64,000 nt of DNA from Candidatus Taylorbacteria bacterium RIFCSPHIGHO2_12_FULL_45_16 (GTDB lineage Bacteria > Patescibacteriota > Minisyncoccia > Phycocordibacterales > PALSA-1337), in assembly GCA_001821055.1 (NCBI GenBank), contig MHRT01000004.1:5548-69547 (forward strand), read 5' to 3'. Position 1 is the stretch's first letter, and the number at the start of each line of letters is the position of its first letter. The notes under the pieces are model-generated. The model ran no database searches and was not told the origin of the DNA. It saw only the letters and a program-made list of their open reading frames with translations. A program made the translations under genes and the position numbers. Shown one piece after another: positions 4,996 through 17,130 of this stretch.

Positions 4996-5346
4996 TTGCT
5001 TCTTTGCTCTTCTATCTCCATGCGAGATTATCAGCTTACTTCACCTTCTTTGGAGGGTATACTCCATCATGACTCAATCATGTATGAAGGCATTCGTCGA
5101 CCGTTCGAGTTACTGAGAGTCATGGATGGGCCCTTATCGCGAGGCGCTAACAAGCACACCCACATAGCCGAGGTTGTATATACAGAAACCGAGCGGAAAA
5201 TCATTCAAAATTACCTGCAAGATCTCAATCGTTTGTTCATGAAAAAACTTTCACACTTTATGGTAGAATCGGAGTCAAAGCCTGATGAAGGCGTCAAGCT
5301 CCAAGCAATGTTGCAGGAGATGATAAAAATCAAAAAATTGCTATAA
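4996..5346 (+). CDS. Hypothetical small protein. It abuts the murD-like gene (its stop at 5344-5346 is immediately followed by the 5348 start) and is possibly cotranscribed.
   Basis: Open frame only. No recognisable motif. The C-terminus is Lys-rich. Confidence 0.25.
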   Translation: MLLCSSISMRDYQLTSPSLEGILHHDSIMYEGIRRPFELLRVMDGPLSRGANKHTHIAEVVYTETERKIIQNYLQDLNRLFMKKLSHFMVESESKPDEGVKLQAMLQEMIKIKKLL

Positions 5347-5347
5347 T

Positions 5348-6691
5348 GTGTGCATGATTTTACGCGATTATTTCAAAGGCAAGCGGATTGCCGTTATTGG
5401 GCTGGGCTTGCATGGTGAGATGATCGAAGATGTGAAATATCTTATCAAAGCCGGCGCTTGGGTGTCCATATATGACCTAAAAAGCGAAGCGCGCCTCAAA
5501 AACCATTTGGTTTTTTTGAGGTCCGTTGGTTTGGCCAATTATGTTTGTGGTTCCATTCCGGCGGATGATTTGTTGGACATGGATCTTATTATCTTGTCGC
5601 GAGAATATCCCAAAGACTCGTCTTTTTTGAAAAGCGTCTATGCCCAAAATATCCCCGTTGAATATCAAGAAACTCTTTTCTTCAAGCTGGCTCCTCCGAT
5701 TACATTGGTTGGTGTGATGGGCATTTGCGGCAAATCAACGGTTATTTCTATCCTTACCCCTTTATTGGAAAAAGTTTGTGAAGCGTATGATACACAAGGC
5801 TTATTCGTCGTTGATTCGGAATCCGCCAACGGTGTTTTGACCCATCTCAGGAAGATCAAGAATGGGGATATCGTGATAATGCGTGTTATAGATGAAATGA
5901 TTCCCGAATTGTATGATATGCGTATTAGTCCGCATGTGGCAATATTCACGACGGTGCCGACGACGCGCGGTTCCCTAGCCTCGCCGTTCGATGTGCTTTC
6001 GTACCAGACATATAACAATTTTATCGTGGCGTCCGATGAGGTCATTGATGTGGCTCGTTCCATGCAAATCCAGCCACGCGCGAAAATGTTGCGTACCAAA
6101 GCCACTTTGATCCCCAATGAATGGGGTTTTGAAGGTCGAGGATCGCATGATCGCATGAATGCCTCCTTGGCGCTGGAGGCGGCGCGGTTATTTAAGGTTG
6201 ATGATGATGTAGCCCACCACATTTTCATTGGATGGAAGGCGCTCAAAGGTCGTTTGGAGTTGATAAAAAAGATAAAAGGCGTTGAATTTTTCAATGATAC
6301 CATGTCAATGACGCCGGATTCGACTCTGGCAGGCATTATCTCATTGTCGCAAGATCGCAATGTTATTCTCATTTTGGGCGGGGCTGATGGGGGATATGAA
6401 TATTGCGCGTTGTATAGTCAGTTGCCTCGTCATGTGCATACGATAGTCAATATTCCAGGTAGTGGTACTCTGCGTCAACGCGCGCATATGCAAGATATTG
6501 AGGGTGTTGTAGTGAAGTCAGTTCCGTCAATTGGCGAAGCGGTCAGGACGGCCTTCGAGTGCGCCAAAAAGGGGGATCGGGTCTTGTTTAGTCCCGGCTT
6601 TGACGCTGGTGGCGTTGAAGGCTCCAAAATAGATCGCGGGGAGAGATTCGTGAGAGTAGTAAGGGGGTTGTTGAGTGAGATTATCAGATAA
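5348..6691 (+). CDS. murD: Mur ligase family, MurD-like (UDP-N-acetylmuramoylalanine--D-glutamate ligase)
   Basis: N-terminal Rossmann 'KRIAVIGLGLHG' and the Mur-ligase P-loop 'GVMGICGKST'. Middle and C-terminal Mur domains are present. The start codon is GTG at 5348, with an ATG at 5354. Confidence 0.6.
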   Translation: MCMILRDYFKGKRIAVIGLGLHGEMIEDVKYLIKAGAWVSIYDLKSEARLKNHLVFLRSVGLANYVCGSIPADDLLDMDLIILSREYPKDSSFLKSVYAQNIPVEYQETLFFKLAPPITLVGVMGICGKSTVISILTPLLEKVCEAYDTQGLFVVDSESANGVLTHLRKIKNGDIVIMRVIDEMIPELYDMRISPHVAIFTTVPTTRGSLASPFDVLSYQTYNNFIVASDEVIDVARSMQIQPRAKMLRTKATLIPNEWGFEGRGSHDRMNASLALEAARLFKVDDDVAHHIFIGWKALKGRLELIKKIKGVEFFNDTMSMTPDSTLAGIISLSQDRNVILILGGADGGYEYCALYSQLPRHVHTIVNIPGSGTLRQRAHMQDIEGVVVKSVPSIGEAVRTAFECAKKGDRVLFSPGFDAGGVEGSKIDRGERFVRVVRGLLSEIIR

Positions 6692-6793: not shown

Positions 6794-7753
6794 TTACTCC
6801 CCGCAGATCATACACACCACCGCACCATCAATCTCATGACTGGTATAAGCGGCCTTCATAGCCCCAACCACCGAAAGGGCACTATTAGTGGAAATAGAGA
6901 GACCGGCATGTTCCTGTACCAATTCCTGTGCAGCTTTGATGTCATCATTTGTCGCCACCCAACCTTTTCCACCGGTTTTTTCGATGAGGGGGATTAGGAT
7001 AGATTTTCGGTAACCGGTGATATCGGTGATAGCGTCGGCTGTTGATCTTTCATCGGACCCGTCGTAGGTTTCGAAGGCATCAGAGAGCGGGTGGCAGGAA
7101 GAGGTTTGGACGATGTGGACTTGAATAGGCAGTTTATTTTTTAGAAAATAGGTGGCCAGAGCCTGGGCAGTGGTGCCGGAAGAGGTTCCGATGAAAATGG
7201 CGCCGATGCTTTGCGTAGGTCTACCCTCCGTCAACTCTTTTGCCAATGATTCGTACCCAGCAAGCGCCTGATCGTCGGTTGATTGACGGAGACTGCGCTT
7301 GCCTTCCTGACTTGCTTGGATAAGCGCTTGTAAAGGCCGTTCTTTTATAAGGACACGGATCCTGCCACTACTTTTTTGAGCGATAGCGCGGATTTTATAA
7401 AGTTTTTTAGGCGAAACATGATTGCCGATAAAGATGTCGAGAGTGGTTATTGGTGTCTGGTTATTGGTGTCTGAAAACTCATTCAATTTCTGTACATGTA
7501 TAGCCGCCGCCAGCGCCGCATTACCGGAAGAAGAAATAGCGAATGCTTGGTCGCCGGTGGCTAGATAATGCTCAATCATTATAGGAATGGAACGACCCTT
7601 GTGCGAGCCATATGGGTGCAGGTCCTCGCGCTTGAAATAGAGGTCGGTAAAACCGATGGCAGAGGCCAATTTTTGATATTGTTCGAGAGGGGTTAGCATA
7701 AGATAAATAATCAATGATGCGATGTTCAATGATCGAACATCATTCGATTTCAT
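6794..7753 (-). CDS. PLP-dependent enzyme, fold type II (threonine synthase / cysteine synthase / TrpB superfamily)
   Basis: 'YFKREDLHPYGSHKGRS' (PLP-lysine region) and a Gly-rich 'GTSSGTTAQAL' phosphate-binding loop. Confidence 0.55.
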   Translation of the reverse strand: MKSNDVRSLNIASLIIYLMLTPLEQYQKLASAIGFTDLYFKREDLHPYGSHKGRSIPIMIEHYLATGDQAFAISSSGNAALAAAIHVQKLNEFSDTNNQTPITTLDIFIGNHVSPKKLYKIRAIAQKSSGRIRVLIKERPLQALIQASQEGKRSLRQSTDDQALAGYESLAKELTEGRPTQSIGAIFIGTSSGTTAQALATYFLKNKLPIQVHIVQTSSCHPLSDAFETYDGSDERSTADAITDITGYRKSILIPLIEKTGGKGWVATNDDIKAAQELVQEHAGLSISTNSALSVVGAMKAAYTSHEIDGAVVCMICGE

Positions 7754-7855
7754 TGGTTATTGGTCATTGGAAACTTGATCATTTGCCTTGTCATACTACC
7801 TTTTTTCCGCTACTATGTGAATATCAGCTCACGACAGCTGTCTTTTATCTGATTA

Positions 7856-8053
7856 ATGTTTCATCAAAACCTAAAAACCATGAATATGCTCTGCGTATGT
7901 CCGGAATGTAAAAATACCCTAGATTTATCGCGTTATCCCAACCTTGCCGCCGGCATGGTTATCGAGTGCAATCATTGCGGCATGACTCTATTGGTCAAGG
8001 AGATTGCCACTGATGGCAATGTCAAAACGGAGATTGTTGACGAGGGGAAGTAG
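7856..8053 (+). CDS. LysW-like zinc-ribbon mini-protein (the start may be the Met at 7880)
   Basis: 'CPECKNTLDL...AGMVIECNHCGMTLLV' matches the LysW/ArgW amino-group-carrier zinc-ribbon pattern (CPxC...ExVxCxxCGxxLxV) and is followed by an acidic C-terminal tail. Confidence 0.4.
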   Translation: MFHQNLKTMNMLCVCPECKNTLDLSRYPNLAAGMVIECNHCGMTLLVKEIATDGNVKTEIVDEGK

Positions 8054-10043: not shown

Positions 10044-10703
10044 TTATTCAGCCTTCGCCAAAATTTCCCTCACCTCCTTCTCATCAGTAGACCACTTTTC
10101 ACCATCAAACCACTCCAGTCCGGTGAATTGCATTTTGTAGGTGTCGTTGGGACGCTGGAGCGAGCCGAGGTAGATATACTTCAACCCTTTTCCTTTGGCA
10201 TACAAAATTGTCTTCGTCATCATGCCGAGACCCATGTCTCTGGAGGATTTTTCCATATCATAAAAGGGATACGAGTAATGCATGATTTCGGAATTCAAAT
10301 AGCAGATGGTGTAGCCGATGAGGCCGTGGGCGTCGGAAAAAATAAGTAGGGAATTGTAGTTGCTTTTTTCTGGACTGGTAATCATTTCCTTTATTTTGAA
10401 GGCGCTCATGACCCCAGGGCCAAATTTTTTTTCATAGAAATATTGAGCGAGCCTGCCCAGAGACCAATGGTATTCGTCGTAGGGCAAGACTATTTCCTGA
10501 AGGGCAACGTTATCAACCTTCCTCAAGATGCGGCGGTTTTCGCTGGATAGTTCGAATTTGGCCAGGTCGATGCGGACGGATCGCGTCTGGTGCATCACAC
10601 CTTTGCCGGTACGAGTAAAGACGAAGCCGTTGCTATAAAGCTCTGAAATGTTTTTTTCAGAAAAGTCAGTAATGGTTTTTTCTTGCCAGTGGAGGTAATT
10701 CAT
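10044..10703 (-). CDS. Arginyl/leucyl-tRNA--protein transferase-like protein (ATE/Bpt family, GNAT fold)
   Basis: ATE_N-like 'RSVRIDLAKFELSSENRRILRK'. ATE_C-like 'HGLIGYTICYLNSEIMHYSYPFYD...LGMMTKTILYAKGKGLKYIYLGS...KMQF'. The ATG at 10703 is the preferred start. The 10739 TTG start would lie inside the 24-bp palindrome. Confidence 0.45.
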   Translation of the reverse strand: MNYLHWQEKTITDFSEKNISELYSNGFVFTRTGKGVMHQTRSVRIDLAKFELSSENRRILRKVDNVALQEIVLPYDEYHWSLGRLAQYFYEKKFGPGVMSAFKIKEMITSPEKSNYNSLLIFSDAHGLIGYTICYLNSEIMHYSYPFYDMEKSSRDMGLGMMTKTILYAKGKGLKYIYLGSLQRPNDTYKMQFTGLEWFDGEKWSTDEKEVREILAKAE

Positions 10704-12154: not shown

Positions 12155-12230
12155 ATTGATGAGGTGGGGGAGAATTAAGACCAGATTAAATACCCTACAA
12201 AAATCCGCTGTTATAGCGGATTTTTGTTTT
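12155..12230 (+). ncRNA. Candidate ~75-nt small RNA, defined by promoter plus intrinsic terminator
   Basis: Strong promoter at 12121-12148 and terminator hairpin at 12199-12225 with a T-run. No ribosome-binding site or credible ORF lies between them. Confidence 0.3.
12199..12230. terminator. Bidirectional rho-independent terminator (aaaaatccgct-gttat-agcggattttt-gtttt)
   Basis: Perfect 11-bp stem with a 5-nt loop, flanked by an A-run and a T-run. It lies immediately 3' of the minus-strand gene's stop (12229-12231). Confidence 0.6.
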
Positions 12231-13020
12231 ATTTCAGCCATCTTAGCCGTCGAATCTCGGTTTTCGACTTTTGTGCACGCCCAAAAATTCTATTTGCGTT
12301 GCCTTGTCTACCGTTCTCGGTCCACAACTGTTCGGTGATTTGTTTGCTCACGTCGGTTATCTCGATGATGCCTTGTTTGATGCCAGTGCCGTAGATGCCG
12401 TCTTCGGGATAGGCGACGGCGTGGGAGTAATGGAGTCTGTAAGGGATGAAGTTCTGGTATTCGACTTGGTGAATGACGAGGATGTGGTCTCGGTCATTTG
12501 GGAGAATTTGGATGTCGCCATCTCCAAGCATGGTAATAATGTCGCCAGGCGTGATTTCCTTTATTGATATGACGCGACTATTCTTGTCATGTGCCAAGGT
12601 CGAGACATCGCAATTCTCGATAGGACGCAGAGAGCAACGGAGCTTGCCGATGAGTCCATGGCAATTGACGAATATGGTGTGTTTGTCGAGACTGCCCTTG
12701 CCGAGCTCTTGACTTTCGGCATTGAGGACATAATAGGCGAAGGCGGAACAATCAATCCCAAGGTTGTTATCAGTCAGTAGTTTCTGCAACGATTCGGACG
12801 TAACTGAATCAATAGTCGCATGTACTTTTACGAGTAGTGCTTCCGTTTCCTCGAATATTTCTTTCGGACCGCCTTTGCCACCATTTACCGCCAGCGCGGC
12901 GCGGATTTTGACGGTCTTGTTATTGAAATAGGGGACCGAGCAGACAGCGGTACCCACTTTGAAATTGAGGTACTGGTCGACGACTGATATGGCGCGGTTT
13001 GTGAGAGTTTTGGTGTTCAT
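12229..13020 (-). CDS. Hypothetical protein, possibly an NlpC/P60-like Cys-His peptidase. The start is taken at the internal ATG (MNTKTL...).
   Basis: Candidate catalytic Cys in 'GIDCSAFAYYV', then 'PGDIITML' and 'HILVIHQV' (Cys..His order), resembling papain-like amidases. The listed ORF extends upstream through a low-complexity stretch. Confidence 0.3.
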   Translation of the reverse strand: MNTKTLTNRAISVVDQYLNFKVGTAVCSVPYFNNKTVKIRAALAVNGGKGGPKEIFEETEALLVKVHATIDSVTSESLQKLLTDNNLGIDCSAFAYYVLNAESQELGKGSLDKHTIFVNCHGLIGKLRCSLRPIENCDVSTLAHDKNSRVISIKEITPGDIITMLGDGDIQILPNDRDHILVIHQVEYQNFIPYRLHYSHAVAYPEDGIYGTGIKQGIIEITDVSKQITEQLWTENGRQGNANRIFGRAQKSKTEIRRLRWLK

Positions 13021-13329
13021 GGATGAGGAATTGATTGTGAATTTAGAATGGGAAGGAATATAATCAGACTTGCCAAGTTGAATAAATGAATATGCCCTTA
13101 AATATAGCTCAAAATATGGAGTTTGATGAGAGTTGACAGGATAGTGTTTTGGGTGTATAACTGTGGGCAGAAAATTAGGGTCAAGAACCTTGATATGTTG
13201 TTGGTTTCGGGACCGCATCCGTGGATATTCCGTGGCTGTGTTTCCGTGACCAATGACCAATCGATAAGGCGTATCAGGCTCTTTGATAGAGGTGATATTG
13301 CTACGACCAATCTTGACACGGAATCAACT

Positions 13330-14010
13330 ATGAGAAATCCAACATTAGCACAGACGGGCGGTTTGGCCGGAAGTATTGGCGACGATCTTCGTCAGATTCA
13401 AGACCAGCTTGACGGCGAAAGAATCCAGCTGGCACTGAATAATCCGGATCACCCGTTTCGGCAAGGAGTCGTAACACTTGCACTTGCACAGTTTTTCGCC
13501 GTCACATGGACCGAGAAAGGTAGTATCATCCACGTCACCTTCATCTCCAATGGTTGGAGTGGTCCCGAGTGGAAAGAGCACTTCAAAAAGAAAGGCGTCC
13601 AGTTGTCGCCTAACGCGTTGGAAATCTTGGACTCCACGGAGTTCAAAGCTTCAAAGGCAGGAACTGTCCGGCAAGTTGCTCTCCTCAAGGGTGAACTGTT
13701 CAACGAGTCGGATCGTATTACCAGCAAAATTCGCGCCAAGGCTGCCGAACTCAAGTTGAAGACTTTGGACATGGAAGTTATTTGCCTCATCCGTGACACA
13801 TTCTCCAACGCGGAGATCAACAAAATGGGGTTTTTGTGGATCGTCGGCATGCATGACTCTGTCGAAATTGGCGGCGATTTGAGCCTTCTCACGGCGGTTG
13901 CCTACGGCGTTGTTCCGGGGCTCGAGGCGCTCTACGACCGTCCCGACTTCAGGTGGTATCGTGAGGGTGGCTTTGCCTTCGCTGTCCAGCAAGTAGAACT
14001 CAAGGCTTAG
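13330..14010 (+). CDS. DGR target (variable) protein with a C-terminal VR. An alternative in-frame start at 13123 is possible.
   Basis: The C-terminal 42 codons form the VR. The template-encoded version (..NANDDVPRLETNYDNPDNRWNRENGFAFAV..) carries the Asn (AAC)-rich signature seen in C-type-lectin-fold DGR variable regions. Confidence 0.7.
   Translation: MRNPTLAQTGGLAGSIGDDLRQIQDQLDGERIQLALNNPDHPFRQGVVTLALAQFFAVTWTEKGSIIHVTFISNGWSGPEWKEHFKKKGVQLSPNALEILDSTEFKASKAGTVRQVALLKGELFNESDRITSKIRAKAAELKLKTLDMEVICLIRDTFSNAEINKMGFLWIVGMHDSVEIGGDLSLLTAVAYGVVPGLEALYDRPDFRWYREGGFAFAVQQVELKA
13868..13994 (+). repeat. DGR variable repeat (VR)
   Basis: A 127-bp match to 14985-15111 with 19 mismatches. At every mismatch the other copy has A and this copy has G, T or C. 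Confidence 0.85.
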
Positions 14011-14050
14011 TGTCTAGGCACTCTCAAGCCCTAAACACTTTGCCCTTTCG

Positions 14051-14076
14051 CCCCTCACCTGCACGCAGGTGAGGGG
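14051..14076. promoter_or_regulatory. GC-rich perfect hairpin (11-bp stem, CACG loop), 57 nt downstream of the VR
   Basis: cccctcacctg-cacg-caggtgagggg. This is either the DGR homing-enhancing hairpin or the left-end hairpin of the IS200-like element. Confidence 0.5.
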
Positions 14077-14187
14077 CTGATTATTATCCGTAAAAACCCC
14101 CACCTTTAGGTGGGGTGTACGTCTGAAGGCGAAGCCGTATGCTAAAGCCGTCCGGCAGGACGGCTCTTAGCAATTAATCATACGCCT

Positions 14188-14646
14188 ATGTCACAACACA
14201 AACGTACGATACGCACATTATCACATTGTTTCTACGATATTAAGTACCACCTAGTCTGGACTCCCAAATACCGTGGCAAGGTATTGGGAGCCGACAAGGT
14301 AAAGAGTGAACTGCGACGGATCTTCGAAACCATCACCAAGTGGAAGCACTGGGAGATCATCGAACTCAACATCCAGGAAGACCACATACACCTGTGCCTC
14401 CTTGCGACACCGAGAGATTCAGTCTCTTACATCATGCAAATTCTGAAAGGGAAATCCTCCGCCTGGATGAAGAAGAAGATTAAGCGTACCCACGGACTCT
14501 ATGAAAAAGAAAGTCTCTGGGCACGAGGATATTTCGTCTCGACAATCGGCCTAGATGAGCACCTCATCCGCCGGTATGTTAAGCACCAATCCCACCACAA
14601 TGAAGTAGACCAACCATCACTGTTTGCCAAGCTGTTACCTAAGTAA
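14188..14646 (+). CDS. tnpA: IS200/IS605-family Y1 transposase TnpA
   Basis: 'YHLVWTPKYR', the HUH motif 'HIHLCLLATP', 'ILKGKSSAWM', and the catalytic-Tyr region 'WARGYFVSTIG'. Length 152 aa. Confidence 0.85.
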   Translation: MSQHKRTIRTLSHCFYDIKYHLVWTPKYRGKVLGADKVKSELRRIFETITKWKHWEIIELNIQEDHIHLCLLATPRDSVSYIMQILKGKSSAWMKKKIKRTHGLYEKESLWARGYFVSTIGLDEHLIRRYVKHQSHHNEVDQPSLFAKLLPK

Positions 14647-14984
14647 ACCACAGTCGCCCTGCCGGCACAGCCGGCAAACACAAAGCCACCAGACCTAAGT
14701 CTGGTGGTTGGTTACTGCATGAAAATGGTACAATTGTGTCGGTAGTAGGTGAATATGTACGTGACCACAGGTCACGTACCACCGAATCCAGTATCCATGC
14801 ATCGAGAATGTTCTGGATCATGATCTAGGGCAGAGTGGTGCGTGAACTCTAAAAAATGGAGATACTTGGTATAGGGTGTTAGAGCATTAGTTTGGCAGGT
14901 TATCCTACCGAATGATATGACGAAAACAAAGGTGAGCCCCGAGAGTATTCAAGGGGTAGTCGCATGGATGACATTCTATACACA

Positions 14985-15111
14985 TTGACGGCGATTTGAA
15001 CCTTCTCACGGCGAATGCCAACGACGATGTTCCGAGGCTCGAGACGAACTACGACAATCCCGACAACAGGTGGAATCGTGAGAATGGCTTTGCCTTCGCT
15101 GTCCAGCAAAT
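14985..15111 (+). repeat. DGR template repeat (TR), non-coding
   Basis: Adenine-rich copy of the VR, lying immediately 3' of avd and 427 nt upstream of the RT ATG. Confidence 0.85.
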
Positions 15112-15115
15112 CCTT

Positions 15116-15460
15116 TCATTTCTCCCCGACTTTAGTAGTCGGGGAGTTTTGTTTCTCCTGAAGATATTTTTCATTTTGACCATACCATCCACCGAGCATT
15201 TTTCCGATGTCATTTGACGGTTCAGATATCATCAGATATTTTTTGTTATCTATCGAACCTATTTCCCAGGCGACTTGCATGAGAATTTTCATCGTCTCGA
15301 GTTTGCTGATGGCCTGTCTAATCCACGGACTCTTCTTGTCTTTTGGCAGAAATGCCGCCGTAGAGACTGACTCGATGGTGTCTATAAATAGCAGATCTAT
15401 CCTAACACCCAAAGAATATTTAGATGTTTTCGGGAATAATTTTATAACATCCTGCCACAA
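15116..15460 (-). CDS. avd: Avd-like accessory variability determinant (four-helix-bundle family, TIGR02436-like). The apparent start codon is TTG.
   Basis: 'FPKTSKYSLGVRIDLLFIDTIESV' and 'SKLETMKILMQVAWEIGSIDNKKYLMISEPSNDIGKMLGG' match the conserved helices of Avd and the 23S-IVS four-helix-bundle proteins. Confidence 0.6.
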   Translation of the reverse strand: MWQDVIKLFPKTSKYSLGVRIDLLFIDTIESVSTAAFLPKDKKSPWIRQAISKLETMKILMQVAWEIGSIDNKKYLMISEPSNDIGKMLGGWYGQNEKYLQEKQNSPTTKVGEK

Positions 15461-15520
15461 TTTGTAGGCACCAATGGCCTTTGATAGAGCGGGAATTACT
15501 TTCGGTTGTTGAAATCCGTT

Positions 15521-15530
15521 GGGGGGGGGG
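15521..15530. repeat. G10 homopolymeric tract, 8 nt upstream of the RT ATG
   Basis: gggggggggg. Candidate slipped-strand phase-variation site and Shine-Dalgarno-like element. Confidence 0.9.
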
Positions 15531-15537
15531 TAGACTT

Positions 15538-16551
15538 ATGAGTATGCGACGAATCCAATGTAATCACACCTACGAGGATATCATATCTATGGAAAATCTG
15601 CTTGAAGCGTGGAAGGAGTTTGTATGCGGAAAAAGAAAGCGGAGTGACATGCAGGAATTTCAACTTAAACTTTTTGAGAATATCCACAGACTTCACTCTG
15701 ACTTAAAGGACAAGTCTTACAAACACGGCTGTTATACGCCTTTCAAAATCAACGACCCAAAGCCTCGTGATATTCACAAAGCCCTCGTGCGAGATCGGCT
15801 TCTTCATCATGCACTGTATCGGAAGTTGTATCCATTTTTTGACCGAACATTTATTTCGGATTCATATTCATGTCGGAATGACAAGGGGACGCATAGAGCC
15901 TTGGACAGGTTTGGCGATTTCGCCTATCGAGCTTCGTGGGGACATACAAAAACGGTCTGGGTTTTGAAATGCGACGTCAAGAAATTTTTCGCTTCCGTAG
16001 ATTATGAAGTTTTGTTTGGAATTCTCGAGAAATATATTCCGGATAAAGATGTTATGTGGTTGATCCGGGAAATCGTCGGTAGTTTTCATTCGACGAAAGA
16101 AGGTGTCGGATTGCCTCTGGGGAATCTAACCTCGCAATTATTTGTGAACATCTACATGAATGAGTTTGATCAGTTTGTGAAGCATAGATTAAAAGAGAAG
16201 TGGTATATTCGATATGCTGATGATTTTGTGATTCTTAACCAAGATAGAAAATGGCTTGGACATGCCCTTGCGGAAACCCATCGTTTTTTGGAGCAGAAAT
16301 TACATCTTACTCTTCATCCAAATAAAATAAGCATTAGAACTTTCGCTGGAGGAGTTGATTTTTTGGGTTGGGTTCATTTTCCTACACACCGTGTGCTACG
16401 GACGGCGACTAAAAGGAGGATGTGGAGGAATGTTGAGGTGAAGAAGATGTTGAATAACGCGGACACATTACAGTCGTCAATTCAGTCGTATATGGGGATG
16501 TTGAGTCACGGAGATGCGTATAAATTGCAGGCTGTGATAAGAATGGATTGA
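15538..16551 (+). CDS. Diversity-generating retroelement reverse transcriptase
   Basis: RT motifs 'KCDVKKFFASVD', 'GLPLGNLTSQLFVNIYMNEFD' (with the DGR-specific xGxxxSQ in place of the QG of group II and retron RTs) and 'YIRYADDFVIL'. The N-terminal 'DSYSCRNDKGTHRAL' is DGR-type. There is no maturase or endonuclease domain. Confidence 0.85.
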   Translation: MSMRRIQCNHTYEDIISMENLLEAWKEFVCGKRKRSDMQEFQLKLFENIHRLHSDLKDKSYKHGCYTPFKINDPKPRDIHKALVRDRLLHHALYRKLYPFFDRTFISDSYSCRNDKGTHRALDRFGDFAYRASWGHTKTVWVLKCDVKKFFASVDYEVLFGILEKYIPDKDVMWLIREIVGSFHSTKEGVGLPLGNLTSQLFVNIYMNEFDQFVKHRLKEKWYIRYADDFVILNQDRKWLGHALAETHRFLEQKLHLTLHPNKISIRTFAGGVDFLGWVHFPTHRVLRTATKRRMWRNVEVKKMLNNADTLQSSIQSYMGMLSHGDAYKLQAVIRMD

Positions 16552-16586
16552 ACGATCTAAGACACTGTGCTAGGATAAAATCATCT

Positions 16587-16889
16587 ATGAATACCACTCA
16601 CAAAGGTTCAATTCGATGCATTATTTTCAAGGATGGCGCTACTTGGTATGGTGTTGCGCTTGAGTTTAATATTGTGGAATCAGCCGACGATGCCGACGTA
16701 GTAAGATTTAATCTAGATGAAGCCATTCAGGGCTATGTGGAATCCCAGAAAAAACTCAAAGGTACGCGTGTCTCACCTCTCAATCAAAAACCAATGAAAG
16801 AGTATGCTGATTTGTGGAATAATCTGGTGACGGATAAAGCTATTCCGAGCCCATATAAAGTCAAATCTTTCGGTTTTACTAAAGTCTAA
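16587..16889 (+). CDS. hicB: HicB-like antitoxin (UPF0150 / RNase-H-like fold)
   Basis: 'WYGVALEFNIVESADDADVVRFNLDEAIQGYVE' matches the HicB N-domain pattern. It is followed 10 nt downstream by hicA. Confidence 0.5.
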   Translation: MNTTHKGSIRCIIFKDGATWYGVALEFNIVESADDADVVRFNLDEAIQGYVESQKKLKGTRVSPLNQKPMKEYADLWNNLVTDKAIPSPYKVKSFGFTKV

Positions 16890-16899
16890 GTTAAAAGCT

Positions 16900-17130
16900 A
16901 TGCCGAAAGGAGCATTCAACTGGACGTTCAATGATGTCGTGGCCGTGCTCAAAGAAAATGGTTTTCATTTGAATCATATCAAAGGAAGTCACTATTTTTA
17001 TGTTGGTTACATTGACGGCAAGGCTCGACAGGTCTGTGTCGCCAAACATGGCAAAATCTCATTCAAACCAAGAACTTTCAAGGGAATGATGGAGCAATCT
17101 GGGCTTTCCAGAGATAAGTGGGGATTATAA
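16900..17130 (+). CDS. hicA: HicA-like mRNA interferase toxin
   Basis: 'VLKENGFHLNHIKGSHYFY' matches the HicA/YcfA dsRBD-like 'GSH' motif. Length 76 aa. Confidence 0.6.
   Translation: MPKGAFNWTFNDVVAVLKENGFHLNHIKGSHYFYVGYIDGKARQVCVAKHGKISFKPRTFKGMMEQSGLSRDKWGL

Follow-up and report, generated by a model that had tools for sequence, protein, structure and literature searches.

A chromosomal diversity-generating retroelement of a Candidatus Taylorbacteria population, its structured template RNA and a possible phase-variable promoter of its reverse transcriptase

Does the segment at 13330-16551 of the 64,000-nt stretch of Candidatus Taylorbacteria DNA analysed here (the window) hold a working diversity-generating retroelement (DGR) and, if so, how might its template RNA and its reverse transcriptase (RT) be expressed? 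The initial annotation had proposed a complete element, comprising a target gene with a variable repeat (VR), a template repeat (TR), avd and a DGR-type RT. An ungapped comparison at an offset of 1117 aligned the VR (13868-13994, plus strand), which encodes residues ∼180-222 of the 226-residue target, with the invariant TR (14985-15111, plus strand). The adenine-only pattern reported for this 127-bp pair was reproduced: all 19 mismatches fall on TR adenines (10 A>G, 7 A>T and 2 A>C), for which the hypergeometric chance is 4.4 × 10−14, given 33 A in the 127-nt TR. The final mismatch (13993/15110) lies at the extreme edge of the repeat and may merely reflect the end of homology; leaving it out gives 18 of 18 in 125 bp (2 × 10−13). 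The proposed 5′ boundary at 13868 is right, non-A mismatches starting immediately upstream of it (13864 and 13866). Read in the VR frame, the TR contains four AAC and four AAT codons; its adenines occupy codon position 1 in 12 cases, position 2 in 19 and position 3 in one, and all 18 changed adenines are at positions 1 and 2.

At their 3′ ends, the two repeats share a block (13968-13992 and, in the TR, 15085-15109, both plus strand) resembling an initiation of mutagenic homing (IMH) sequence. Its identity in both copies had been recognized correctly, but its length is 25 bp rather than 24 bp; the 24-mer first described occurs at just two places in the window, the ends of VR and TR. By analogy with the Bordetella IMH, this block is probably where mutagenesis stops on the 3′ side. 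IMH and IMH* do not differ, and the sequences diverge directly past the 25-bp terminal blocks, so that the feature separating donor from recipient is not visible. [quoted passage not shown] A GC-rich, terminator-like 12-bp hairpin (14050-14077, plus strand) is located 56 nt past the VR and could serve as the target gene's terminator or as a DGR target-site hairpin. In a syntenic relative (L004) it stands at the same place with another stem sequence (GCCCCGTACTTTC...GAAAGTACGGGGC) and with its pairing retained.

The RT gene lies on the plus strand and ends at 16551. Its start is more likely ATG 15544 (335 aa) or ATG 15538 (337 aa) than TTG 15481. Both motifs on which the DGR-type assignment had been based are present, LGNLTSQ at 16117-16137 and YADD at 16213-16224 (plus strand), the former aligning with IGSLTSQ of Bordetella bRT. 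The protein matches Pfam RVT_1, and its best PDB match is Bordetella bRT (8ub7, E = 1 × 10−45), over residues 12-330, that is, the full length. The clade comprises at least 581 relatives, and nearly all of the best 80 carry a CPR MAG label.

A different identity has to be weighed here, namely a partial gene duplication, with a downstream copy of the target's 3′ end, beside an RT of group II intron or retron type that has no connection with it. It could appeal to the best NCBIfam match of the RT, a group II intron RT/maturase (E = 1.3 × 10−38), and to the target having no Pfam family. That match (TIGR04416), however, reaches 133 bits, far under its cut-off of 300, and NCBIfam has no DGR RT model. 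In the PDB, bRT is favoured over the next-best entry, the 'retron-type' RT 5hhj (4 × 10−19), and over group II intron RTs (1.7 × 10−18 and weaker). Neither group II intron RNA nor retron RNA was returned by Rfam searches at gathering and E-value thresholds. We assign this identity next to no probability: it is refuted by the adenine-only mismatches, by the PDB comparison and by 68 relatives with the same arrangement and spectrum. Across those 68 relatives 1206 of 1262 TR/VR mismatches are on TR adenines and the order VR-TR-(avd)-RT never changes; in L004 alone, the count is 26 of 26.

The avd homologue (15116-15460, minus strand, 114 aa) is convergent with the TR and divergent from the RT. Its proposed kinship with Avd was supported by Pfam bAvd (E = 3.7 × 10−9, 37.5 bits against a gathering score of 40) and NCBIfam DivGenRetAVD (E = 4.8 × 10−13, 49 bits against a cut-off of 80), matches that are significant by E-value and fall slightly under the curated cut-offs. 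Among its orthologues 45 of 46 match bAvd, the best at 2.6 × 10−15; a sequence search with the Avd profile did not find the Bordetella Avd in the PDB. The opposite-strand position of avd, initially considered unusual, is a known architecture. In the B3 type, TR-(avd)-RT, the TR is followed by a reverse-strand avd and a forward-strand RT, and this type accounts for 90% of CPR DGRs (PMC5758913). The window shares with the CPR B3 elements (Wu, Gingery, Zimmerly et al. 2018, PMC5758913) the gene order, the strands, a patescibacterial host and a small target lacking a recognizable domain. In our own set, the B3 arrangement is present in 80 of 80 relatives, with avd on the minus strand throughout. 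DGRs of CPR and DPANN organisms were reportedly treated by Paul et al. 2017 as well.

The target gene (13330-14010, plus strand) is read here from ATG 13330, while public gene callers choose upstream starts giving 271-294 aa. These limits, those of avd and the end of the RT gene agree with the open reading frames as first annotated. The protein has a conserved domain at residues ∼55-222 and a non-hydrophobic N-terminus. Neither the target nor 125 members of its family matched a Pfam or NCBIfam family, and the FGE-sulfatase/DUF1566-type family HMM was likewise without a match in all of them. No significant Foldseek match was obtained for the target. It thus stands outside the sequence families of the DGR variable proteins Mtd (1yu0), TvpA (2y3c) and the FGE-type folds, in an uncurated group of its own with at least 1,414 sequence clusters. 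A small target without signal peptide, which had seemed exceptional, is the norm in this family of more than 1,400 clusters. The structure model is C-type-lectin-like, as had been anticipated from the TR, and would place the VR residues at the C-terminus of the fold.

Mismatches, RT, Avd, fold and the polymorphism described below all back the original proposal of a complete DGR. We conclude with high confidence that this Rifle aquifer genome of Candidatus Taylorbacteria carries, at this locus, a functional chromosomal DGR of the CPR 'B3' type.

An insertion of the IS200/IS605 family (14086-14715, ±3 nt, plus strand, ∼630 bp) separates the target gene from the TR. This insertion between VR and TR had been overlooked in the initial annotation. 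It carries an intact IS200 transposase gene, tnpA (14188-14646, plus strand; Pfam Y1_Tnp, E = 3.8 × 10−33; NCBIfam transpos_IS200 NF033573, 125 bits against a cut-off of 55), and end hairpins at 14098-14115 and 14686-14707. It is present in a single copy in the window, and the corresponding site in L004 is empty. The insertion explains the long VR-TR offset of 1117 bp: the gap between the repeats is 990 nt in the window versus 250-430 nt in relatives. The IS leaves both the terminator-like hairpin of the target gene and the candidate promoter box of the TR intact, the latter lying 10 nt downstream of the IS end.

Whether the element has been at work recently was addressed with 14 near-identical Candidatus Taylorbacteria contigs from the Rifle aquifer (6-13 kb, assembled consensus sequences). 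Recurrent differences among them comprise six VR sites, a poly-G tract upstream of the RT gene and one SNP (10629), and the VR is the most polymorphic spot in ∼13 kb. The heterogeneity expected of a DGR, limited to TR-adenine positions over a constant TR, was found in these consensus sequences: the six sites (13871, 13877, 13882, 13883, 13957 and 13958) are all on TR-A positions, while TR, RT, avd and the RNA leader are invariant. Five VR protein haplotypes are represented. Because all six sites are TR adenines, recent retrohoming is indicated, and the DGR is apparently still active.

The same variants could have been left by a decayed or silent DGR, whose past activity wrote the VR and whose two ancestral haplotypes were then reshuffled when strains recombined or were assembled together. 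Population diversity is low: each of two VR blocks has just two alleles, which occur in all four pairings and combine with SNP 10629 in the same manner, and 13 of the 19 A-derived differences do not vary among the contigs. An IS has inserted within the cassette, and the G9 tract of most contigs leaves a 15-nt promoter spacer, poor for a sigma-70-type promoter. Against silence, RT, Avd, TR and the full RNA leader are intact and identical and yet the VR is the most variable part, with every variable site where DGR events predict it. Neither the terminator of the target nor the TR promoter box is disrupted by the IS, and the IS is present in all 14 contigs, hence with every VR haplotype, which means that at least some diversification postdates it. 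The insertion has not stopped diversification. We consider a silent element unlikely and favour an active one; since two old haplotypes, recombined or mixed in assembly, fit the data too, 'active now' is a weaker statement than 'active recently'.

Upstream of the TR lies what appears to be a dedicated RNA gene. An extended −10 box, TGGTACAAT (14726-14734, plus strand), follows a TG-n-TAnAnT pattern kept across relatives directly 5′ of the leader and, judged by this sequence pattern, is the candidate promoter of the TR RNA. The leader itself (14741-14984, plus strand, ∼245 nt) consists of hairpin domains P1 and P2 and of a helix, P3, that encloses two internal hairpins and ends exactly at the TR start. 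In an alignment of 42 loci, the RNAalifold structure shows compensatory changes in 41 of 46 pairs. Its helices have 91.8% of cells paired versus 42-52% in slid controls, and a covariation of 0.667 versus 0.13-0.17. No Rfam family matched the leader in the window or in 15 relatives; the Rfam RT-7 RNA (RF03028) scored 22.5 bits against a gathering threshold of 116.8, over 66 nt only.

A long-range helix joins the leader to sequence beyond the TR. Its 5′ strand (14854-14862) pairs with a 3′ strand (15113-15121) that lies just past the TR and overlaps the opposite-strand avd stop codon (both strands of the helix on the plus strand). Eight of its nine pairs are changed on both sides, pairing stands at 85.8%, and the helix is present in the MFE fold of L004. 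It closes leader domain II and the TR into one loop, and is the analogue of the 'cPRT Stop' upstream/downstream duplex of the Bordetella DGR RNA. Immediately downstream, a 10-bp GC-rich hairpin (15122-15146) followed by a U-tract (to 15156, plus strand) is located within the last avd codons of the opposite strand. One hairpin thus encodes RNA structure on one strand and the Avd C-terminus on the other. A hairpin plus U-tract is found at most 75 nt from the TR end in 65 of 68 relatives, with differing stems and conserved flanks (CAUUUCUC...GAGUUUUGUUU). Avd-binding stem-loops have been predicted just downstream of the TR (Handa et al., bioRxiv 10.1101/2023.10.23.563531), and the window hairpin is likely an intrinsic terminator of the TR RNA, an Avd-binding stem-loop, or both.

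The second regulatory region is found before the RT gene. A promoter-like site (15509-15536, plus strand) combines a −35 TTGAAA, a 16-nt spacer and a −10 TAGACT, and its spacer contains a G10 homopolymer (15521-15530, plus strand), a candidate slipped-strand switch. ATG 15544 sits 7 nt past the −10 box, which suggests a leaderless RT mRNA. The tract is G10 in the window and in two of the near-identical contigs (L093 and L095) and G9 in eight others, without linkage to VR haplotype. At the equivalent spot, 71 of ∼81 relatives have G7-G14, directly followed by TAnnnT in 36 of the 71, 19 of these with an ATG exactly 7 nt on. Six further loci (L024, L029, L040, L062, L069 and L070) have a repeat of a 2-, 4- or 7-nt unit instead, (GT)n, (TGGC)n/(CTGG)n, (TGGCGGC)n or (CTGATTG)n. 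For background, G/C runs of at least 8 nt number nine per 702 kb, and the tract at 15521-15530 is the sole such run in the window.

Phase variation by promoter-spacer repeats, poly-G/C or TA tracts, is established for the opc and porA promoters of Neisseria, hif of Haemophilus and fim of Bordetella. These resemble the window in having a length-polymorphic, hypermutable tract between −35-like and −10-like hexamers in a divergent promoter region. They differ in what is controlled, surface antigens there and, in the window, what would be the mutator itself, the DGR RT. The G10/G9 variation within one population suggests phase-variable DGR expression. We tentatively extend this to the whole of the present clade of CPR DGRs, a proposal to which we give somewhat less than an even chance: a slippage-prone repeat in the spacer of the RT promoter, within the region between avd and RT (usually G7-G14, other units at the six loci), would switch the RT on and off stochastically through changes in its length, alongside a dedicated ∼415-nt template RNA whose covarying leader is in no RNA family database. 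In the literature searched, no publication linking DGRs with such promoter repeats was found.

The tract might instead have a fixed function, for instance as a G-rich ribosome-binding or UP-like sequence or as a protein-binding site, the 9/10 difference being assembly noise. Homopolymer lengths are error-prone in short-read assemblies, 35 of the 71 tracts have no clean TAnnnT box directly after them, and the distance of 7 nt between the window tract and ATG 15538 would suit a Shine-Dalgarno sequence. Yet the relatives differ in tract length (7 to 14), and both G9 and G10 are seen with more than one VR haplotype and in independent assemblies. Moreover, other simple repeats replace poly-G at the same spot, which points to repetitiveness and not to G-richness as the conserved property. 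We regard a fixed element as a serious possibility, if not quite a probable one.

With the switch left as a proposal, the cassette could operate as follows. The extended −10 promoter would transcribe a discrete non-coding RNA of ∼415 nt, formed of leader, TR, the 3′ strand of the long-range helix and the hairpin/U-tract, an RNA whose structure is shown by covariation. The hairpin would end this transcript ahead of an antisense run into avd. A 77-bp divergent promoter region would express RT (15538/15544-16551) and Avd (15460-15116, minus strand). By homology with the Bordetella bRT-Avd-RNA complex, RT and Avd would bind the TR RNA and reverse-transcribe the TR into cDNA from a presumptive priming site, with misincorporation opposite adenines. 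The cDNA would then replace VR 13868-13992, the 25-bp identical block serving as the 3′ boundary, and so recode at least 13 residues on the C-type-lectin-like, putatively ligand-binding domain of a small protein without signal peptide, an outcome to which the adenine-only mismatches and the population polymorphism attest. The IS200, which landed between the target terminator hairpin and the TR promoter, has not halted the process.

The closest experimental reference is the DGR of Bordetella phage BPP-1 (mtd-avd-TR-brt; 8ub7; bioRxiv 10.1101/2023.10.23.563531). Common to both are full-length RT homology, the SQ motif, an Avd homologue, adenine-specific mutagenesis, a C-terminal VR on a protein with a C-type-lectin fold (modelled for the window) and an identical or near-identical 3′ IMH block. 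The window element is chromosomal and its target is not a tail fibre, whereas the BPP-1 DGR is phage-borne. As avd is inverted relative to BPP-1, the RNA upstream of the TR is a dedicated non-coding leader instead of avd coding sequence. Past the TR, the window has ∼45 nt with the terminator-like hairpin, in contrast to the 140-nt spacer of BPP-1 that runs into brt. With this layout, TR RNA, avd and RT need three separate promoters.

As a DGR, the locus adds little, since such cassettes are known to abound in CPR bacteria and the Rifle aquifer is much studied. Its value is that of a documented example, with 14 natural near-identical copies whose VR changes at template adenines only, and with a cassette that tolerates a 630-bp IS200 between target and template. 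Set beside its relatives, it also shows three features that touch on DGR control and on the recognition of the RNA by RT-Avd. In place of the avd-TR-spacer transcript of the Bordetella model there is a template RNA of its own with a strong structure; one hairpin doubles as RNA structure and, on the opposite strand, as the code for the Avd C-terminus; and a poly-G or other simple repeat is conserved at the RT promoter. If the repeat is a phase switch, it would offer a handle for engineering switchable DGRs and would account for the way in which very small genomes keep down the cost of a resident mutator.

An ungapped alignment of the variable repeat (VR, 13868-13994, in the target gene 13330-14010) with the template repeat (TR, 14985-15111), offset by a constant 1117 bp, shows 19 mismatches. 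The TR base is A at all 19 (10 A>G, 7 A>T and 2 A>C); because A accounts for 33 of the 127 nt of the TR, the chance of this outcome is 4.4 × 10−14. The final mismatch (13993) is at the border of the repeat, where homology may simply end, and without it 18 of 18 mismatches fall on A. The adenine-specific differences described in the initial annotation were confirmed on either count. VR and TR have an identical 3′ 25 bp (13968-13992 on the VR side), and the window contains no further copies of the IMH-like 24-mer, allowing up to three mismatches, beyond these two. By codon position, the TR adenines are distributed as 12 at the first, 19 at the second and one at the third, with four AAC and four AAT codons.

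The open reading frames that we found match the layout originally assigned to the target, avd and reverse transcriptase (RT) genes. Over its whole length the RT, ending at 16551, matches the Bordetella diversity-generating retroelement (DGR) RT in the PDB (8ub7, E=1e-45), with LGNLTSQ aligned to IGSLTSQ; the runner-up was a 'retron-type' RT (5hhj, 4e-19), followed by group II intron RTs (1.7e-18 and weaker). Pfam bAvd (E=3.7e-9) and NCBIfam DivGenRetAVD (E=4.8e-13) both hit the Avd ORF (15116-15460, minus strand) with scores slightly under the curated cut-offs, and 45 of 46 orthologues of this Avd have the bAvd match. The solved Bordetella Avd in the PDB was reached neither by the single Avd sequence nor by an Avd profile. 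With mismatches at A only, the match to the Bordetella RT and the Avd match, the interpretation as a complete DGR was correct.

Searching the RT against species-representative genomes yielded 581 relatives, the best 80 of which are nearly all labelled Patescibacteria (CPR) metagenome-assembled genomes (MAGs). In every one of these 80, a minus-strand Avd ORF immediately precedes the RT. The TR adjoining avd could be paired with a VR in 68 loci, with the VR 100-430 nt upstream of the TR in all but two, and 1206 of 1262 TR/VR mismatches among relatives are at TR adenines. The inverted avd had been singled out as unusual, a view that does not hold: the arrangement TR-(avd)-RT is architecture B3 of Wu et al. 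2018 (PMC5758913), which makes up 90% of their CPR set, and is therefore typical. The locus is a real, complete DGR of the known CPR B3 type, and may already be present in published catalogues. Two of the related loci, L007 and L016, have two VRs, and so two targets, for a single TR. Another, L028, has a second DGR (5009-5933) beside its B3 element; there the order is canonical, VR and TR being separated by an Avd-like ORF on the plus strand.

Between the target gene and the TR, an intact IS200/IS605 element, single-copy in the window, occupies ∼14086-14715. Its tnpA (14188-14646) is intact (Pfam Y1_Tnp, E=3.8e-33; NCBIfam equivalog, 125 bits against a cut-off of 55) and was missing from the initial annotation. 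The insertion site is flanked by the terminator-like hairpin of the target gene (14050-14077) and the putative TR promoter box (14726-14734). In the syntenic relative L004 the order is MraY, a 258-aa ORF, target, TR, (avd), RT, ..., ATP-grasp. Because L004 has the cassette without an IS, this comparison of gene order dates the IS200 as a later insertion into the cassette.

Several observations concern the surrounding genes. A conserved gene upstream of the target (12229-13260, minus strand; 263 aa in public contigs), with a weak NlpC/P60 match (E=0.0026), is syntenic in L004 and in another related locus, L005, irrespective of DGR presence. At the corresponding locus, L005 has the target gene and lacks TR, avd and RT; its target orthologue (7346-8020, SRR12487013) is 63% identical, its VR-like region still resembles a DGR product, and the next gene begins 93 nt on. 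In L005 the cassette has either been lost or acts from elsewhere. Immediately downstream of the RT (16548-17130) are a 113-aa ORF with no family match and a gene for a HicA toxin (PF07927, E=1.7e-9), which together probably form a toxin-antitoxin pair of the HicAB type; at the corresponding position L004 has another ORF, of 72 aa.

The heterogeneity of the VR, for which a population check had been proposed, was analysed in 14 assembled contigs near-identical to the window, 6-13 kb each, from different samples and assemblies. Recurrent VR differences occur at 13871, 13877, 13882 and 13883 (one block) and at 13957 and 13958 (a second block). All six of these VR sites are TR-adenine positions, and TR, avd and RT are invariant, as predicted for DGR activity. 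Diversity is low: each block has only two alleles, and all four combinations are present, so that part of the pattern could come from two older haplotypes that recombined, or from mixed assemblies. The other recurrent differences are a poly-G tract (15521-15530), which varies in length, and a G/A SNP at 10629. This SNP, the sole recurrent polymorphism outside the DGR, is found in every combination with the two VR blocks, a hint of recombination or of mixed strains in the assemblies. As for diversification by the DGR, all 14 contigs carry the IS200, and because every VR-variant contig does so, at least part of the diversification postdates the insertion. The locus is also contained in one JGI contig, L097, although an exact-pattern scan of metagenome contigs for the TR 3′ junction gave no match.

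The interval between target and TR is conserved RNA rather than spacer. In an alignment of 42 loci (260 nt upstream to 60 nt downstream of the TR), a strongly covarying leader of ∼245 nt starts just after a conserved TG-n-TAnAnT (14726-14734 in the window). RNAalifold predicted 46 pairs from these loci, 41 with compensatory changes. A long-range helix, added by hand, brackets the TR by pairing 14854-14862 with the nine bases right after it (15113-15121). In the full structure including this helix, 91.8% of cells are paired versus 42-52% with slid partners, both partners change in 49 of 55 pairs, and covariation is scored at 0.667 versus 0.13-0.17. Directly after the long-range helix comes a terminator-like hairpin with a U-tract (15122-15156), found in 65 of 68 relatives with differing stem sequences and conserved flanks. 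Read on the opposite strand, this hairpin and the helix's 3′ strand supply the last ∼13 avd codons, so that 15116-15156 is under both protein-coding and RNA-structural constraint, in nearly all relatives.

We infer that the TR RNA is an independent transcript of ∼415 nt, from ∼14741 to ∼15156, terminated by the hairpin at 15122-15156. The hairpin may also dock Avd. In the Bordetella ribonucleoprotein, which has a parallel layout, the RNA after the TR base-pairs both with the TR and with a segment upstream of it, and the TR is followed by a stem-loop that binds Avd. Handa et al. (bioRxiv 10.1101/2023.10.23.563531) predicted stem-loops of this kind in many DGRs, including those of CPR, from the 40 nt before and the 100 nt after the TR; the long structured leader described here falls outside their 40-nt upstream span. 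No Rfam family was found for the template RNA in the window or in 15 relatives; RT-7 (E=0.008) was far under its gathering threshold and was rejected.

The 77-bp avd-RT intergenic region contains the poly-G tract (G10) seen to vary in length. A consensus scan placed it within the 16-nt spacer of a putative promoter (TTGAAA and TAGACT), exactly 7 nt after whose -10 box lies the ATG at 15544. At the corresponding site, 71 of ∼81 CPR relatives have G7-G14, and in six loci other simple repeats, with units of 2, 4 or 7 nt, replace it: (GT)n in L024 and L069, (TGGC)n in L062, (CTGG)n in L040, (TGGCGGC)n in L070 and (CTGATTG)n in L029. Elsewhere, the relatives' loci contain nine G/C runs of at least 8 in 702 kb, and the window none besides this tract. 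TAnnnT directly follows the tract in 36 of the 71 loci, with the first ATG 7 nt further on in 19 of these 36, half of the 71 having no clean -10 box at the exact post-tract position; recognisable promoter spacers range from 14 to 20 nt. In the Taylorbacteria population, eight of 11 near-identical contigs covering the tract have G9 and three G10, on more than one VR haplotype, homopolymer lengths in assemblies being error-prone. Judged from sequence, the tract resembles the phase-variable spacer of a promoter, for the RT and perhaps for avd too, and may be a switch for the DGR. No papers linking DGRs with such simple repeats were found in the literature searched.

The target protein is identical to OHA29439.1 (NCBI), which comes from a Rifle-aquifer MAG of Candidatus Taylorbacteria; the 90% cluster of the target contains ten sequence variants. 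No Pfam or NCBIfam family was found for it. A word-indexed search returned only five homologues; an exhaustive profile search returned 1,414 cluster representatives, 975 of them at <1e-10. The family comprises proteins of 165-260 aa with a common domain of ∼165 residues (query residues ∼55-222), and a search of 125 members gave no relevant Pfam domain in any of them. The only PDB match of the family profile, an Ig-like protein, was a spurious repeat match and was rejected. An AF2 model from a 6-sequence alignment had a pLDDT of 56.9 (below 30 in the VR region), which a 125-sequence alignment remedied, and Foldseek searches against PDB and BFVD gave no significant match.

What raises this DGR above the routine is evidence from nature for recent diversification despite the IS200 insertion, together with a structured template RNA that is clade-wide and a simple-sequence repeat at the putative RT promoter that is common to the clade.
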